Shown: positions 402-35,714 of the stretch, one piece after another
How the letters are laid out: each line of letters starts with the position of its first letter
Numbering within the stretch: position 1 is the stretch's first letter
DNA from: Escherichia coli
Lineage (GTDB): Bacteria > Pseudomonadota > Gammaproteobacteria > Enterobacterales > Enterobacteriaceae
Assembly: GCF_003018235.1 (NCBI RefSeq)
Contig: NZ_CP027437.1
DNA: 64,000 nt
Strand: one strand, 5' to 3'
Notes under the pieces: model-generated
Told to the model about the DNA's origin: nothing
What the model saw: only the letters and a program-made list of their open reading frames with translations
Databases searched by the model: none
Made by a program: the position numbers and the translations under genes

Positions 402-864
402 CCACGGATAAAGAGAACTAAATTTCGTCAGAATTAACAGGAAATAACTGGAACGAAAAATACACCGCTTACGCGGCGGGGTTTCTGCAACCTTAAAACA
501 GGGTAAGAGAAATGGCAGAGATGATGAACAATAAACTCTTCATAACCAGTCTCTTTAAGTTGACTGGCCGGGAGTAACGACCAGTGGCAATACAAAAAAA
601 CCGCTTGCCAGCGTTTGTCTGGTCGGGTTACATTTCCCGTGCACCTCATAAAACGGGTGCCGGGATTCTCAACCCGCAGAAGAACAGAGCGCATAACCGC
701 GCCAGCGGTTTTTTTATGCGTGCCGTATCGTCACACCTTTTTCGCACACGAATTATGGCGGGGCGTACGGGGCCGACTTCGGTCGGGCCGGATCCTCTGT
801 TCTCCGGTGTTGAGAACCCCGTACGTCTCGCCACCCCGAGATTCTCAACTCTGGATGGTGAGTT

Positions 865-1203: not shown

Positions 1204-3126
1204 ATGACCGTGTATTCAGCGGGAGGTCCGCGCATGCCTGAGCCGGAAGAAGAACAGGCATTCACTGAAGAGGTGAACAGCGCCTTTTCCGGGCTGCCTC
1301 GTTTTGTGTCTGTAAAGCTGGGGCGCAGGATCAGCAGCGCATGGCAGACAAAGGGTTTTGCCGGTGCACGGGAAAAATTTGCGCTGATGGTTCAGAAGGA
1401 TTTGCCGTTCATTACCGGGGTGAATAAACGTTATGCCATTAATCCGGATGAATTACCGGGGTGGCTGTTTGGTGGGCTGGCATCTGATCAGGCATACGGT
1501 GCGGTTCATTCCATGACCTGGCGATTTAATGCCATGGTGGATGGTGACGACGGGGATGCGCATTTACTGGCTCAGGATCTGTCCGTGTTTCTTATTGCTG
1601 AAATGCAGCACCTGAGTGTTCTTCTTGCGGATGAAGATGCGGATGCGGCGGCAGATGCCATTTATGCCATGGTTGCCGGGCTTGTTGAGCATTTCCGGAT
1701 GGAGCCACCGGACTGGAAGCGTTTTATTGGCAGAAAGCTGACACTGGAGCAACTGACTGTTGCCATCAGCCGGATGCTGAGTGTTCGCTGGTGGCAGGGA
1801 AAACTCAGGGCATTCTCCCGTCGCTGGCGTGAACATCTGCTTATAGCTATGGGTGTCGTTCGTCGGCAGTCTTCACCGCACTGCAGTTATGAATGGGTGC
1901 AGAGGTGGCTGGCGGGGCGTAAGCACGGTCGAAGGCTGATGGCGGAAACGGACGTTGAGGATGAAGAAACAGGAGAAAGATTTTCACTTCTCGATTTGGT
2001 TGACAGCAGCATTTCAGATGCGGAGAAACGCCGCGCAGAGCTGATGACCAGGGTTAAGGGGCTGGAAGATTTAGCCCGTTTTGAAGGTGTGGCGCAGGAG
2101 CAGGGGTATATCGGGCTTTTTTTCACGATGACCGCGCCATCAAAATATCATGCCTGGCTGGAGACAGGATATCGCAATCGTCGTTATAACGGCGCAAGCC
2201 CGAAAGACACACAAAATTATTTCTCCGGACTCTGGCGTCAGATCAGTGCAACGCTGAGGCGCAGGGGGATCGGGATTTTTGGATTAAGAAGTGCCGAACC
2301 GCATCATGACGGAACGCCGCACTGGCATGGTGTTCTCTATGTGCATCAGGAGCATGCTGCCGCCTTACAGGACATTCTTGAGTATTACGCCAACCGCGAT
2401 GATGACGCGGGAAAAACGCCCATCCGCAAAGCAGGAAGAAAATCCCACCTGGAAATAAAACCGGTTCTTGATGATCTGGGGAGTGCCTCTGCCTATATCG
2501 CCAAGCATATTGGAATGAATCTTGACGGTTGTGCGCCAGGCGGAATGAATCATGAAACGGGCCATACACTGGTGGTCACTGCCCGCCACGCCTCGGCGTG
2601 GGCGTCATTATGGGGGATCAAGCAGTTTCAGTTTATAGGCAGCACACCGGTAAGTGTATGGCGTGAGCTGCGTCGCTTTAACAATCAGGCTCATGCTGAC
2701 CGGATAAGCCCGGCGCTGGGTGAGTTACACCGTGCAGCCAGTGAGGGTGACTGGAAAACCTATACCAGGCTGCAGGGTGGACCGTTTGTGGCACGAAGAG
2801 ATCTGGTCCTTCGCACATGGTATCAGCGTTCGGAGGAGCCGGATGAGTGTGGGCTACACACCAGTGCGATCAAAGGTGTTTATATGCCGGGGCGTGATAC
2901 GCCACCGGTAGTGACGCGTTCACGTAACTGGAGGATCACCCGGAACGTTACAACAGGCGCTCTCAATGTTAACCGGGGGTCTGCTTTAACGCCCTGGACT
3001 TGTGTCAATAACTGCATTTCGGGCAGAAAACGACCAGATGGTCATCCTCCGGATCCAGGTATAAGGATCCCTGTTCAACTGGAACTGAACTTCGGGGAAG
3101 AGAATAAAGGGAAAAGTGAGCAGTAA
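1204..3126 (+). CDS. phage replication initiation endonuclease, HUH rolling-circle type (P2/186 gpA-like)
   Basis: 640-aa ORF with GGGAGGA RBS; HUH motif set FFTMTAP, PHWHGVLYV and YIAKHIG in canonical order. Confidence 0.7.
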   Translation: MTVYSAGGPRMPEPEEEQAFTEEVNSAFSGLPRFVSVKLGRRISSAWQTKGFAGAREKFALMVQKDLPFITGVNKRYAINPDELPGWLFGGLASDQAYGAVHSMTWRFNAMVDGDDGDAHLLAQDLSVFLIAEMQHLSVLLADEDADAAADAIYAMVAGLVEHFRMEPPDWKRFIGRKLTLEQLTVAISRMLSVRWWQGKLRAFSRRWREHLLIAMGVVRRQSSPHCSYEWVQRWLAGRKHGRRLMAETDVEDEETGERFSLLDLVDSSISDAEKRRAELMTRVKGLEDLARFEGVAQEQGYIGLFFTMTAPSKYHAWLETGYRNRRYNGASPKDTQNYFSGLWRQISATLRRRGIGIFGLRSAEPHHDGTPHWHGVLYVHQEHAAALQDILEYYANRDDDAGKTPIRKAGRKSHLEIKPVLDDLGSASAYIAKHIGMNLDGCAPGGMNHETGHTLVVTARHASAWASLWGIKQFQFIGSTPVSVWRELRRFNNQAHADRISPALGELHRAASEGDWKTYTRLQGGPFVARRDLVLRTWYQRSEEPDECGLHTSAIKGVYMPGRDTPPVVTRSRNWRITRNVTTGALNVNRGSALTPWTCVNNCISGRKRPDGHPPDPGIRIPVQLELNFGEENKGKSEQ

Positions 3127-7457: not shown

Positions 7458-7534
7458 GCGCCGTTAGCTCAGCTGGACAGAGCAATTGCCTTCTAAGCAA
7501 TCGGTCACTGGTTCGAATCCAGTATGGCGCACCA
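7458..7534 (+). tRNA. tRNA-Arg (anticodon TCT, reads AGA)
   Basis: Cloverleaf folded by hand: 7-bp acceptor stem, perfect 5-bp anticodon stem ATTGC/GCAAT, loop CTTCTAA, T-loop TTCGAAT, encoded CCA. Confidence 0.85.
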
Positions 7535-7535
7535 T

Positions 7536-7610
7536 GCGGTCATCGTATAATGGCTATTACCTCGGCCTTCCAGGCTGATGATGCGGGTTCGATTCCAGCT
7601 GGCCGCTCCA
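7536..7610 (+). tRNA. tRNA-Gly (anticodon TCC), glyT-like with one T-stem mismatch
   Basis: 75 nt, near-identical to E. coli glyT recalled from memory; anticodon loop CTTCCAG; acceptor stem with one G-U; T-stem GCGGG/CCAGC has a G-A mismatch. Confidence 0.7.
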
Positions 7611-7630
7611 TAGAGGATTATGGGGACTGT

Positions 7631-7768
7631 ATGTTGAGTATTTTTCTGCGTTACCTTTCATCGGTAAAAATAAACACACAACAACTATTTATGCTGGCAT
7701 TAGCAATGATAGTTATTGGTTTTCTCGGAACTTGTTTATTTATTTACTATATTTTTGTCGATAATTAA
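7631..7768 (+). CDS. small hydrophobic peptide ORF (45 aa, MLSIFLRYLSSVKINTQQLFMLALAMIVIGFLGTCLFIYYIFVDN)
   Basis: ATG ORF in AT-rich spacer after tRNAs; one predicted TM helix; weak RBS. Confidence 0.25.
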   Translation: MLSIFLRYLSSVKINTQQLFMLALAMIVIGFLGTCLFIYYIFVDN

Positions 7769-7939
7769 TATTTTTAGTATTTAGCCAGAGTGGCCCAAAC
7801 AGAAAATAAAGTTACTGTGAAACAGGGGGGCCTAATAAAAATAATCACCACTAAATTCGGGGCTTTAAAAATGCTAAGAACATCACATTTCATTATGCCG
7901 GGTACTGGAGAATAACATGATGTTTTGTTAAAAATGATT

Positions 7940-7979
7940 TTGCATGGTGAATCCCCCTGTGCGGCGGGGCATAATGACA
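7940..7979 (+). repeat. about 40-bp conserved motif, copy 2
   Basis: See copy 1; a partial inverted copy (GGTCATTGCAG...CACCATGCAG) lies at about 8021-8064. Confidence 0.5.
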
Positions 7980-8321
7980 GATGTTTGGTTGCGTATTGTA
8001 TAGGCAAGTTGCGGATTCTGTCTGGTCATTGCAGAATTCACCGGGAGGCACCCGGCACCATGCAGATAATTGTTTTGTGGATGATAATACCAGCCCCTCT
8101 CCGGAGGGGCTTTCTTATGGGCGAAAAAAAGCCCGGGGAGCCGGGCAATAGCATGAGATATACGTTTTTATAGACGTACAGATTTTAATCAGAATTTATG
8201 GGGCTGCGCAACTGCGTGGCCTTTTTTGTTTTGTGGGCTAAGGTTTTCCCCTTTGATTCGCCATGTGGCTGAACCTGTAGCCCGCCACTGTTCAGACGCA
8301 ATCCCGGCAAGGGGAGGAATA

Positions 8322-11025: not shown

Positions 11026-11102
11026 CACCTCATACTCAGGCCACCAGCATACAGCGGTGGCCTTTTGTTATCGTGCGCTTCCGGAGAACGGGAGACGGGG
11101 AT

Positions 11103-11318
11103 ATGTACCAGATGGAAAAAATCACAACAGGGGTGTCATACACCACGTCAGCGGCGGGAACGGGATACTGGTTACTGCAGCTGCTGGACAGGGTCTCCCC
11201 GTCCCAGTGGGCGGCGATAGGCGTGCTGGGGAGTCTGCTGTTTGGTCTGCTGACGTACCTGACGAACCTGTATTTTAAAATCAGAGAGGACCGTCGTAAG
11301 GCGGCGCGGGGAGAATAA
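11103..11318 (+). CDS. holin, phage-21 S-type (pinholin-like) with dual-start motif MYQM
   Basis: Near-identity to S21 C-terminal region ([14 protein letters not shown]...[22 protein letters not shown], from memory); two TM segments. Confidence 0.8.
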
Positions 11319-11321
11319 ATA

Positions 11322-11953
11322 ATGAACCATGAAGAAATGAATCAGCGCTTCAGTCGCCTGGAAAATGAAATTGCCGGACTGAATAAAAAACTGTCGGCGC
11401 TGGTGACTTCTGAAGATGAAAAAAAAAACGCCGCGATGAACAGGAGGCGGCGTTTTATGATTATTGCATCAAAGTTGCCCGCAGGACCTTTGCGAATTTT
11501 TTGCAGGAAAAGCTATCACCGACCACATCGTCAGAAAAGTACTCCATTACGGTTGAAAGTGCCGGAGAGGAAGGCAATAAACGTTATTTTATTGCGTCTG
11601 CACCGGATAAAGACGAGGAACCCCGTCGGCCTTTCAGGGTTTCCTATGAAGAGGGGGAGTTCGTCGTTTATGAGAACGGAAAACCTGTCCGGGCATCGCA
11701 TCATCACTGCCTGAAAATTATTGATCTCGCTATTGGATGCCTGAAAGACGAAAACACCAGGGTTATGAAACGCATTGGCCGTTGCATGGGGTATCTGCAG
11801 GTGGCGGCAGAGATTGAAGCACTTGACAGTGGTGCTGACAGGGATACAGCGGTGCGGGAGTTCCTTCTTCGTGATTTCAATACCACGCCCTTTAAAAAAG
11901 TGCCTTATGACTGGATCCAGCCGGGCCTGACTTATCTCAAAGGGCGTATATGA
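11322..11953 (+). CDS. hypothetical gene between holin and endolysin, split into two frames at an A10 tract (11419-11428); fused product about 210 aa if -1 shift
   Basis: Frame 0 ORF 11322.. is protein-like for about 33 codons then junk-like; frame -1 is protein-like from the A-run to 11953 but has no ATG start; A10 tract followed by 7-bp-stem hairpin ACGCCGC...GCGGCGT. Confidence 0.35.
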
Positions 11954-11995: not shown

Positions 11996-12529
11996 ATGAA
12001 CGCAAAAATCAGATACGGCCTGTCGGCTGCCGTTCTGGCGCTGATTGCCGCAGGGGCTTCTGCGCCAGAAATCCTTGACCAGTTTCTGAATGAAAAAGAA
12101 GGTAATCACACCACGGCATACCGTGATGGTGCGGGTATCTGGACCATCTGCCGTGGTGCCATTCTGGTGGACGGTAAGCCTGTTGTTCCCGGCATGAAGT
12201 TGTCGAGGGAAAAATGCGACCAGGTTAACGCCATCGAACGTGACAGGGCGCTGGCATGGGTGGAGAAAAACATCAAAGTGCCGCTGACCGAACCGCAGAA
12301 AGCGGGGATTGCGTCATTCTGCCCGTACAACATCGGTCCTTCGAAATGCTTCACCTCAACGTTTTACCGGAGACTGAACGCCGGAGACCGTAAGGGGGCA
12401 TGTGCTGAAATCCGTCGGTGGATATATGACGGTGGCAGGGACTGCCGTATCCGCTCAAACAACTGCTACGGTCAGGTATCCCGGCGTGACCAGGAGAGTG
12501 CGCTGGCGTGCTGGGGTATCGACAGATAA
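11996..12529 (+). CDS. SAR endolysin (lysozyme, phage-21 R-type)
   Basis: N-terminal signal-anchor-release helix LSAAVLALIAAGASA followed by lysozyme catalytic region EGNHTTAYRDGAGIWTICRG. Confidence 0.8.
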   Translation: MNAKIRYGLSAAVLALIAAGASAPEILDQFLNEKEGNHTTAYRDGAGIWTICRGAILVDGKPVVPGMKLSREKCDQVNAIERDRALAWVEKNIKVPLTEPQKAGIASFCPYNIGPSKCFTSTFYRRLNAGDRKGACAEIRRWIYDGGRDCRIRSNNCYGQVSRRDQESALACWGIDR

Positions 12530-12619
12530 GCAGAATATTTTGCTGAAAAATGAGATTTTCCCACGCGTCCGGAAAACACAAAATCCTTCATAAAGGTATT
12601 TCAGTAGTGAATAAAAGTA

Positions 12620-12660
12620 AAAACCCCGATTGCGCTAACAGTCGGGGTTTTGTGTTTCTG
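12620..12660. terminator. bidirectional intrinsic terminator-like hairpin (AAAACCCCGA...TCGGGGTTTT)
   Basis: GC stem flanked by A-run and T-run. Confidence 0.5.
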
Positions 12661-12749
12661 ACCTTGAATAAGGCAAGGGAGAAATTATCAGGTAGGGAGG
12701 TGCTTTCCCTGTGAGGAAGTATAAAAGATTCTTTCTGAGGTTGTCCATT

Positions 12750-12863
12750 ATGAAAGGCATTGAAGTGGAGACGCCAGCCAGTCTGGATTTAACAAGAGCA
12801 GCAGCCTTTGCCATTCGTATTGTGGCAATTGCCATACTGGTCTGGGCAATCCGCTGGTGGTGA
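12750..12863 (+). CDS. small hydrophobic ORF (37 aa) overlapping the Rz start
   Basis: ATG ORF ending TGGTGATATG where Rz starts; one TM-like helix; weak RBS. Confidence 0.2.
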
Positions 12864-12864
12864 T

Positions 12865-13332
12865 ATGAACCGTGTTCTGTATGTGTTGATTATTGTCCTG
12901 CTGGTGGCCTGCGGTGCGCTGTGGCTGGCAACAGACCATTACCGCGATAATGCCATCACTTACAAAGCGCAGCGCGATAAAAAAGTCAGAGAACTGAAGC
13001 TGGCTGACGCCACCATTACTGACATGCAGCAGCGCCAGCGTGATGTTGCTGCACTCGATGCAAAATACACAAAGGAGTTAGCCGATGCGAGAGCTGAAAA
13101 TGAAACTCTGCGCGCTGATGTTGCTGCTGGTCGTAAGCGCCTGCGTGTCAACGCCACCTGTGTGTCCGCCACAGACAAAGCCACCGGCACCGCCCGCGTG
13201 GGTAATGCTGCCCGCCCCAGACTGGCAGACGCCGCTCAACGGTATTATTTCACCCTCAGAGAGCGGCTGATGACGATGCAGAAGCAACTGGAAGGGGCAC
13301 AGGAATATATCAGGACGCAATGCGTGAAATAG
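12865..13332 (+). CDS. i-spanin Rz
   Basis: N-terminal TM helix then coiled-coil periplasmic domain; embedded Rz1 frame. Confidence 0.7.
13100..13270 (+). CDS. o-spanin Rz1 (lipoprotein embedded in Rz in +1 frame)
   Basis: Lipobox LLVVSAC and Pro-rich mature region, fully inside Rz. Confidence 0.65.
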
Positions 13333-34475: not shown

Positions 34476-35135
34476 ATAAAAAAAGCGGGGCCACCCCCGG
34501 GCCCCGACATAACGAAGTATCAGATGTTTATAATTATTAGCTTACTAACTGTGCCATATCAGAATACTGCAGGAAGTGATGTTGTTATCATTTTTGCAAG
34601 CAGGGCGTTTCTGGAGGGAATCGATTGGTGATGGAGTGTGCAATGATGAAGGGAATAAGCCTCTGCAAAACAAAAAAAGACTTTAACAAAATCAAGCTCG
34701 CTTAGTGGCGCATCTGCCCGTATCCGCACCAGTCGTCCGGAAAATGATTCAAACACCGGGCGGCAAAAGTATTACCAGTGTAGCAACCTGGAATGCGGCG
34801 TATGCTTCTCAACTCTGGCAGCTTTCCATAAATTCACATCGAAACACGCTTCCGGCGTTCACTCTTCAGAAGGTATCCCGTGGCATGAACTGCCAGCTTC
34901 ACACTGGTGAAACAATCAGATGACTTTTCCTTTACCTCAAATTAACAGGCAGAATTGCCGGAGTAACAAAAAAACGATAGATTACGCGCGGGTGCCTTTC
35001 GGCTGATGGTCGGAGGGAATACCCGAAGGCCAGATGTGGAAAGGCCCCGGAAAACACTTTTGTTTAACCGAGGCCCTAACCGTCTACCCTAAGCAAGTGA
35101 TAGGTTAGCGCCTCCCCGAAAAAGGAGCAAGCGCT

Positions 35136-35276
35136 ATGTCGCAAAAATCGCTGATCGCCATCACGCTCTGCGTGACAGCAACCCTCATCATCTGGATATT
35201 GCACGGTTCGCTGTGTGAGATACGGATGAGTTTCTGGGGAGCGGAGTTTGCGGCGTTCTTACAGTGTAAGCAGTAA
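35136..35276 (+). CDS. Hok/Gef-family type I toxin (46 aa)
   Basis: AAGGAG RBS; TM helix then SLCEIR...EFAAFLQCK matching Hok signature SLCEIRYRDGHREVAAF (from memory); structured flanking RNA. Confidence 0.6.
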   Translation: MSQKSLIAITLCVTATLIIWILHGSLCEIRMSFWGAEFAAFLQCKQ

Positions 35277-35417
35277 GGAGACCGCGACGGGGGAGTAATC
35301 CCCCGTCAATCGGTTGTCAGGGTAAGGTCGAAGTGGCACCCAAATTTAAATAGAGGCCCACCAGTAAGAGTAAGAGCGGTGGGCTTAGCACTTGTTTAAA
35401 TTTGAAAGGAATTCTTT

Positions 35418-35714
35418 ATGAGTGAAATGGTATTTTGTCGCGGCTGCGGCAAGGAAATACATAAAAATGCCATATCTTGCCCCAATTGTGGAGCACCTCA
35501 AAGAACAGCAAGTTCAAAAAGCAGGATTACAGCTGCACTACTGGCTTTCTTTTTTGGTGGTCTCGGTGCACACAAATTTTATTTAGGTAAAGTGGGACAA
35601 GGATTTCTTTATCTTATTTTTTGCTGGACATTCATTCCGGCAATCGTGGCTTTTATTGAGTTTATTATCTATCTATGCACCTCAGATGAAGATTTCGCCC
35701 GCAAATATGGCTGA
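35418..35714 (+). CDS. zinc-ribbon plus TM2-domain membrane protein (98 aa)
   Basis: CRGCG...CPNCG zinc ribbon; TM2-like motif FFFGGLGAHKFYLG and two TM helices. Confidence 0.6.
   Translation: MSEMVFCRGCGKEIHKNAISCPNCGAPQRTASSKSRITAALLAFFFGGLGAHKFYLGKVGQGFLYLIFCWTFIPAIVAFIEFIIYLCTSDEDFARKYG

Follow-up and report, generated by a model that had tools for sequence, protein, structure and literature searches.

The S gene encodes a phage 21-type class II holin

In the 64,000-nucleotide stretch of the Escherichia coli chromosome analysed here (the window), the S gene occupies positions 11103-11318 on the + strand, an open reading frame of 71 codons with its stop at 11316-11318 and possible products of 71 and 68 amino acids. 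We identified the gene through a Pfam profile search, matches to holin PHROGs and composition. The 71-aa protein matches PF04971 ('Bacteriophage P21 holin S') with E=1.9e-33 and 114.6 bits (cut-off 26), covering positions 1-63 of the 64 in the profile, and additionally matches the holin PHROGs phrog_9876 and phrog_20. Composition analysis places a weakly hydrophobic, SAR-like TMD1 near the N-terminus (about 11121-11186); its content of 55% Gly/Ala/Ser/Thr and its mean Kyte-Doolittle hydropathy of 0.65 are both the same as in phage 434 S. TMD2 (about 11208-11276) contains G-x3-S-x3-G, and the C-terminal tail is short, charged and basic. As far as can be read from sequence, S belongs to the class II holins of the phage 21 S type and carries all of the family features that can be checked in this way. 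The PDB sequence search with the holin gave nothing meaningful (best E = 0.36), NCBIfam held no model matching the holin or the spanins, and Rfam returned no family at or near the S start region.

The exact S protein is already public on 962 contigs, and the holin DNA is present in 2430 of 5426 complete E. coli genomes, in 7763 genome copies. The gene and the family it belongs to were established before this work, as were the pairing with a SAR endolysin and the idea of a dual start.

For comparison with phage 21 S21, 434 S and the S21-like ev203 allele served as proxies. These belong to the same Pfam family and are 75-79% identical to the window protein (79% for 434 S). Similar to the window gene, they have forms of 71 and 68 codons starting at codons 1 and 4, tandem Shine-Dalgarnos with a predicted hairpin over the first, a SAR-like TMD1 and a G-x3-S-x3-G TMD2, followed by an R21-like SAR endolysin and Rz/Rz1. 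The S genes of Stx-converting phages (MYQM in LC567841 and vB_EcoS-783R2, IHQM in H-19B) show 93-97% protein identity to the window S and resemble it in the MYQM codons, the CTTCCGG...CGGGAGACGGGG leader and the upstream NanS-p-like esterase, DUF1378 and DUF826. EssQ (Qin) and EssD (DLP12) of E. coli K-12 are of the same family as well. In the Qin cassette, too, a further gene (ydfR) separates S from R, whereas EssQ differs from the window S in starting MKSM, with a basic residue present. An 81.5%-identical copy of holin residues 7-71 was also found in the T4-like jumbo Aeromonas phage AP1 (MT713136, 240460-240654); it lacks a start codon, carries no gene annotation, and may be either a recombination-acquired fragment or an assembly chimera.

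The lysis cassette and its prophage

S sits in the lysis cassette of a lambdoid prophage in the E. coli chromosome, along with an R21-like SAR endolysin and Rz/Rz1. The endolysin gene R (11996-12529, +; PF00959) encodes a SAR-type lysozyme whose best PDB relatives are phage 21 R21 (3HDE/3HDF) and RrrD (4ZPU), at E about 1e-18, with E35, D44 and T50 aligned and conserved. Its N-terminus, MNAKIRYGLSAAVLALIAAGASAP, is a Gly/Ala/Ser-rich anchor. A SAR endolysin is the expected partner of a pinholin. The i-spanin gene Rz follows at 12865-13332 (+; PF03245, E=2.2e-49; phrog_13), and embedded within it in the +1 frame is Rz1 (13085-13270, +; PF06085, E=1.1e-18), an o-spanin lipoprotein with the lipobox VSAC in its translation. 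A strong 13-bp hairpin, AAAACCCCGA...TCGGGGTTTT, lies at 12620-12651 in the 335-nt gap between R and Rz (12530-12864). The pairing of pinholin and SAR endolysin has already been described for nearly all Stx phages (PMC8136144).

Between S and R is a gene for a soluble protein (11322-11953, +; PHROG match to phrog_1085) whose reading frame breaks into two ORFs at an A10 run (11419-11428), where it shifts by +2. The run is A8 in the closest genome and CAAACAAA in the intact homologue of the Stx2 phage LC567841. The orthologue in the closest genome is flagged as frameshifted too, at a different site. The split could reflect a pseudogene, an error in sequencing the homopolymer, or a slippery tract. 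While the lysis genes of phage 434 abut or overlap, the window has this extra gene between S and R as well as the long R-Rz spacer.

The closest annotated genome, at 96.8% identity, has the gene order Q, methyltransferase, two tRNAs, DUF6645/SASA esterase, DUF1378, DUF826, 'class II holin family protein', frameshifted gene, lysozyme and Rz1, with the Q antiterminator upstream. Rz itself is unannotated there, and only Rz1 and a 43-aa ORF are called at its position. In the window (7458-8122, up to 10349), the Q/methyltransferase region is separated from the NanS-p-like esterase, which has DUF1737, SASA and DUF6645 domains, by tRNA-Arg(UCU), tRNA-Gly(UCC) and the sRNA STnc100 (145.6 bits). This interval is where Stx phages carry stx, and no stx genes were found in the window. 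The prophage is a toxin-less relative of the Stx phages, with a lysis region only about 84-86% identical. Toward the left of the window (641-838 and 1204-3126), matches to IsrK and C4 antisense RNA adjoin a 'derepression protein' and a P2 A-like replication endonuclease, while the right end of the prophage, by raiA (about 34700-35700), carries Ogr/Delta-like zinc finger, Hok/Gef and TM2-domain genes. Given the IsrK/C4, P2 A-like and Ogr/Delta-like genes, the prophage mixes a lambdoid late/structural region with P2/P4/P1-like modules.

Two in-frame start codons, each with a predicted ribosome-binding site

S opens with ATG TAC CAG ATG at 11103-11114 (+), which bears out the original prediction of two in-frame Met codons separated by two codons; the span given for the motif, 11103-11115, has the correct start but runs one base beyond the second ATG. 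Start codon 1 (Met1, 11103-11105) would yield the 71-aa product and is the codon from which PGAP begins the orthologous CDS in the closest genome. Start codon 2 (Met4, 11112-11114) would yield the 68-aa product, the presumed pinholin effector, and is the sole start in H-19B-type alleles. We also considered an in-frame GTG at 11073, which would extend the ORF to 81 aa and add three Arg, and ruled it out because the T-rich TTTTGTTATC preceding it has no Shine-Dalgarno.

Shine-Dalgarno 1 (GGGAGA, 11090-11095, +) is located 7 nt before ATG1, with a predicted 16S 3'-end duplex of -6.9 kcal/mol, and Shine-Dalgarno 2 (CGGGGA/GGGGAU, 11096-11101, +) is located 9-10 nt before ATG2, with a duplex of -5.5 to -5.7 kcal/mol. 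The curated phage 434 record (OL657227) gives S71 antiholin from Met1 and S68 holin from Met4, with a separate RBS for each: the position of Shine-Dalgarno 1 is annotated there as the RBS 'for S71 antiholin product', and the GGGGT equivalent to Shine-Dalgarno 2 as that 'for S68 product'. The 434 signals are GAGGUG, 5 nt before ATG1 (-6.9 kcal/mol), and GGGGUU, 9 nt before ATG2 (-5.4 kcal/mol). Each start in the window thus has a predicted ribosome-binding site whose strength and spacing are near-identical to those of 434. The window and the closest genome have in common a 1-nt insertion before ATG1, GGGGAT compared with GGGGT in Stx-phage S genes.

The stronger and better-spaced Shine-Dalgarno is that of ATG1. 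Its optimal 7-nt spacing, along with the PGAP call, would fit the use of ATG1 only, in which case S would make a single 71-aa holin and Met4 would be a conserved internal residue. However, a Shine-Dalgarno can be recognised for each ATG, in the layout of the curated 434 record, and phage 21 is reported to use both of its starts (Barenboim 1999, as cited in PMC9636201).

The arrangement had been predicted to mirror those of phage 21 and lambda S. With respect to S21 this is partly supported: S is a PF04971 homologue, and its two ATGs, each with its own Shine-Dalgarno, occupy positions homologous to those of Met1 and Met4 in the MKSM start of the S21-type sequences (434 S and ev203). The spacer, however, is Tyr-Gln and not Lys-Ser, leaving no basic residue between the starts. 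The likeness to lambda S is loose. Lambda S also encodes an effector and a longer form (S105 holin and S107 antiholin) in one gene through two in-frame starts, and RNA structure is reported to control the ratio of its products. Yet lambda S, a class I holin, is unrelated: it has three TMDs, M-K-M spacing, dependence on Lys2 and a cytoplasmic, non-SAR endolysin, whereas the window protein has two TMDs, belongs to another Pfam family and starts M-x-x-M.

Predicted hairpins upstream of S

Both the MFE and the centroid fold predict an RNA hairpin over Shine-Dalgarno 1 (11076-11097, +), in which CUUCCG (11078-11083) pairs with CGGGAG (11089-11094) and the stem is extended by CG/CG; the 3' arm is Shine-Dalgarno 1 itself. 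The predicted unpaired probability of this site in the window is 0.16, and only 4.7% of upstream shuffles (fraction 0.047) sequester it equally, although the fold z of -1.16 is not individually significant. Shine-Dalgarno 1 was mostly paired in all six UTR types examined (unpaired probability 0.00-0.20), and in each type this probability fell short of the median of shuffles confined to the upstream sequence (fractions 0.03-0.36 for the six types). Within-class UTR variation yielded no covariation for this hairpin. We consider the modelled hairpin over the first Shine-Dalgarno to be suggestive only.

A second, terminator-like hairpin lies between the DUF826 gene and S (11039-11069, +), and consists of GGCCACC, a 10-nt loop and GGTGGCC, followed by TTTTGTT. 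A simple terminator scan missed it because of the 10-nt loop. Its arms covary in relatives (GGCCACC/GGTGGCC, GACCATCGG/CCGGTGGTC, GGCCATCAG/CTGATGGCC and AGCCATCAG/CTGGTGGCT), and in the phi80 record a putative terminator is marked at the corresponding position. Late transcripts under Q antitermination would be expected to read through it.

The two-start arrangement is conserved across the family

A single M-x-x-M, taken alone, is not unusual and does not exceed chance. Among the window ORFs of at least 60 aa, 4 of 180 (2.2%) have Met at position 4, compared with an expected ATG codon frequency of 1.6%, and this background would be compatible with a second Met that arose by chance and has no significance. 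We surveyed the family using the best 120 90%-identity cluster representatives, of which 117 could be aligned at the N-terminus. An upstream Met 2-3 codons before the conserved Met4 was present in 100 of the 117, comprising 95 with Met at position 1 and 5 with M-K-M. The position-1 count is partly inflated by gene calling, although 11 of 12 representatives called from further upstream still carry Met at this position. Met4 was present in 115 of 116 of these representatives, while the most variable N-terminal columns were positions 2 and 3 (2.0 and 1.8 bits). An exhaustive search with 50%-identity representatives found only 161 family members, and the distant full-length ones start M-x(1-2)-M, an arrangement kept in representatives only 35-56% identical. 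One subclade (P0060, P0081, P0104, P0107 and P0120) has lambda-like M-K-M spacing, and representative P0112 (MKSR...) has lost the second Met while keeping the first.

Because the two-start arrangement is conserved across the family, the M-x-x-M of the window is non-random. Its occurrence in about 85% of representatives, from several genera of enterobacteria and at identities as low as about 35%, effectively refutes a chance origin, which we regard as extremely improbable. The aligned N-termini indicate that the arrangement is a real family trait. It is likewise hard to explain, if only one start is used, why both Mets are near-invariant beside hypervariable positions 2 and 3 across such deep divergence.

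The window spacer adds no positive charge

In later papers that cite the primary S21 work (PMC13056207, PMC9636201 and PMC4749879), the antiholin effect of S21-71 is attributed to an extra basic residue, Lys2, which holds the N-terminus in the cytoplasm and slows the exit of TMD1; the lambda S107 antiholin is likewise defined there by an extra basic residue between its starts. A bioinformatic survey counted a dual start only where a basic residue lies between the two codons (PMC9671378). In a study that saturated the N-terminus of S21-68, the TMD1 flip and pore formation were delayed by positive side chains, accelerated by hydrophobic or negative ones, and slowed only modestly by polar uncharged ones (bioRxiv 10.1101/2021.04.20.440580). 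Our literature search turned up no experiments that addressed the start codons of S genes from Stx phages or of the MYQM type.

In the window the long form extends the short one by Met-Tyr-Gln, and the two differ in charge by 0, compared with +1 for MKSM, MYRM, MLRM, MHRM, MMKM and MKM. No Lys or Arg lies between the two starts, and the basic residue that characterises the S21-71/S21-68 dual start is therefore absent; where the S21 type has Lys-Ser, the Tyr-Gln of the window gives the long form no positive charge. The window is not alone in this respect. Among the best 120 90%-identity representatives, 56 spacers were basic and 43 non-basic, the latter being MYQM (34), MNQM (3), MDQM (3), MFQM (2) and MHQM (1). 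Spacers without a basic residue recur in distant members of the family, and MYQM, MNQM, MDQM, MFQM, MITM, MQLM and MTDM are all found with Met1 kept.

S could still encode a full holin/antiholin pair as in phage 21 if the 71-aa MYQ form retarded the release of TMD1 independently of charge, through its longer N-terminus or through Tyr2 as an interfacial anchor, and formed inactive heterodimers with the 68-aa form. The recurrence of uncharged spacers in distant members would fit such a role, as would the prevalence of Tyr, which occupies position 2 more often than any other residue does (60 of 101 in the family). The very short N-terminus of S21-68 is, moreover, said to be critical for TMD1 exit (PMC13056207), and alleles 97% identical to that of the window are labelled 'holin/antiholin component S' in deposited phage records. 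That label, however, is inherited annotation. All of the cited experiments tie antiholin activity to added positive charge, and MDQM, which adds a negative charge, should speed the TMD1 flip.

Natural alleles with and without the first start

We surveyed the natural alleles in 119 IMG/VR viral-contig copies (among L090-L209) that share codons 3-9. Codons 1-2 were ATG TAC in 76 copies, ATG AAC in 5, ATG GAC in 3 and ATA CAT in 35 (29%). In a first IMG/VR set, the MYQM codons were identical in 80 of 80 loci, a uniformity that made this set uninformative. Met1 was kept in 84 of 84 copies with the standard UTR while codon 2 varied (Y, N or D), a pattern that would also fit a long form acting independently of charge. 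The absence of ATG1 in 29% of the sampled copies argues against such a form, and on balance we consider it rather unlikely that S encodes a charge-independent antiholin.

The ATA CAT alleles (H-19B, L089 and the 35 of 119 IMG/VR loci) have ATA CAT in place of ATG TAC and only one start, with its Shine-Dalgarno 9-10 nt upstream; the H-19B GenBank CDS starts at Met4. These alleles always have an unrelated 5' leader, which indicates a recombination junction right at the start of the S gene and a single-start holin in these phages. With 35 of 119 copies lacking the upstream ATG, the long product is dispensable in nature. The same alleles bear on the use of ATG2 only, with ATG1 an unused relic that travels with its 5' UTR: they work from ATG2 alone, and ATG1 is lost solely with a swap of the whole UTR, as hitch-hiking predicts. 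The paired ribosome-binding sites and the conservation of both Mets described above speak against a single start, and we find it unlikely that just one, whether ATG1 or ATG2, is used.

Model for S function and its implications

We propose, at somewhat better than even confidence, that S is a conserved two-start pinholin in which both starts are used, the hairpin limits ATG1, the 68-aa form is the effector and the 71-aa form serves at most as a weak brake. Ribosomes would initiate at both ATGs to give the 71-aa and 68-aa proteins, with the small hairpin over Shine-Dalgarno 1 limiting the use of ATG1. In the 68-aa effector, the weakly hydrophobic TMD1 would leave the membrane, and TMD2 would then oligomerise into small, presumably heptameric pinholes that depolarise the membrane and release the tethered SAR endolysin. 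The 71-aa form would have to drag three extra polar/aromatic residues across the membrane. Because Met-Tyr-Gln adds no charge, it would be at most a weak brake and probably not a true S21-71-like antiholin. Several observations weigh against this two-start model. The stronger, better-spaced Shine-Dalgarno of ATG1 could dominate; the hairpin is short, with the fold z of -1.16 and no covariation; and Met1 persists in many lineages without a basic spacer, so that the long form could have a selected, charge-independent role.

The finding matters little by itself. The only point that it adds is that sequence does not justify the antiholin label for the MYQM class of alleles. For annotators, the label 'holin/antiholin' on every M-x-x-M allele of the S21 family exceeds the evidence, because about half of the family variants, including that of the window, lack the basic residue of the demonstrated mechanism.

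MYQM and the other uncharged spacers also raise the idea, which we hold as doubtful, that the S21 family owes the persistence of its dual start to something other than N-terminal charge. If so, a delay of TMD1 that is length-dependent or Tyr-anchored, or two starts that buffer holin dosage translationally, would be possibilities, and the textbook 'extra basic residue' rule would be just one variant of a broader timing device. The natural single-start (H-19B-type) and uncharged dual-start alleles would provide a ready panel for determining what share the long form has in the lysis timing of Stx-type phages.
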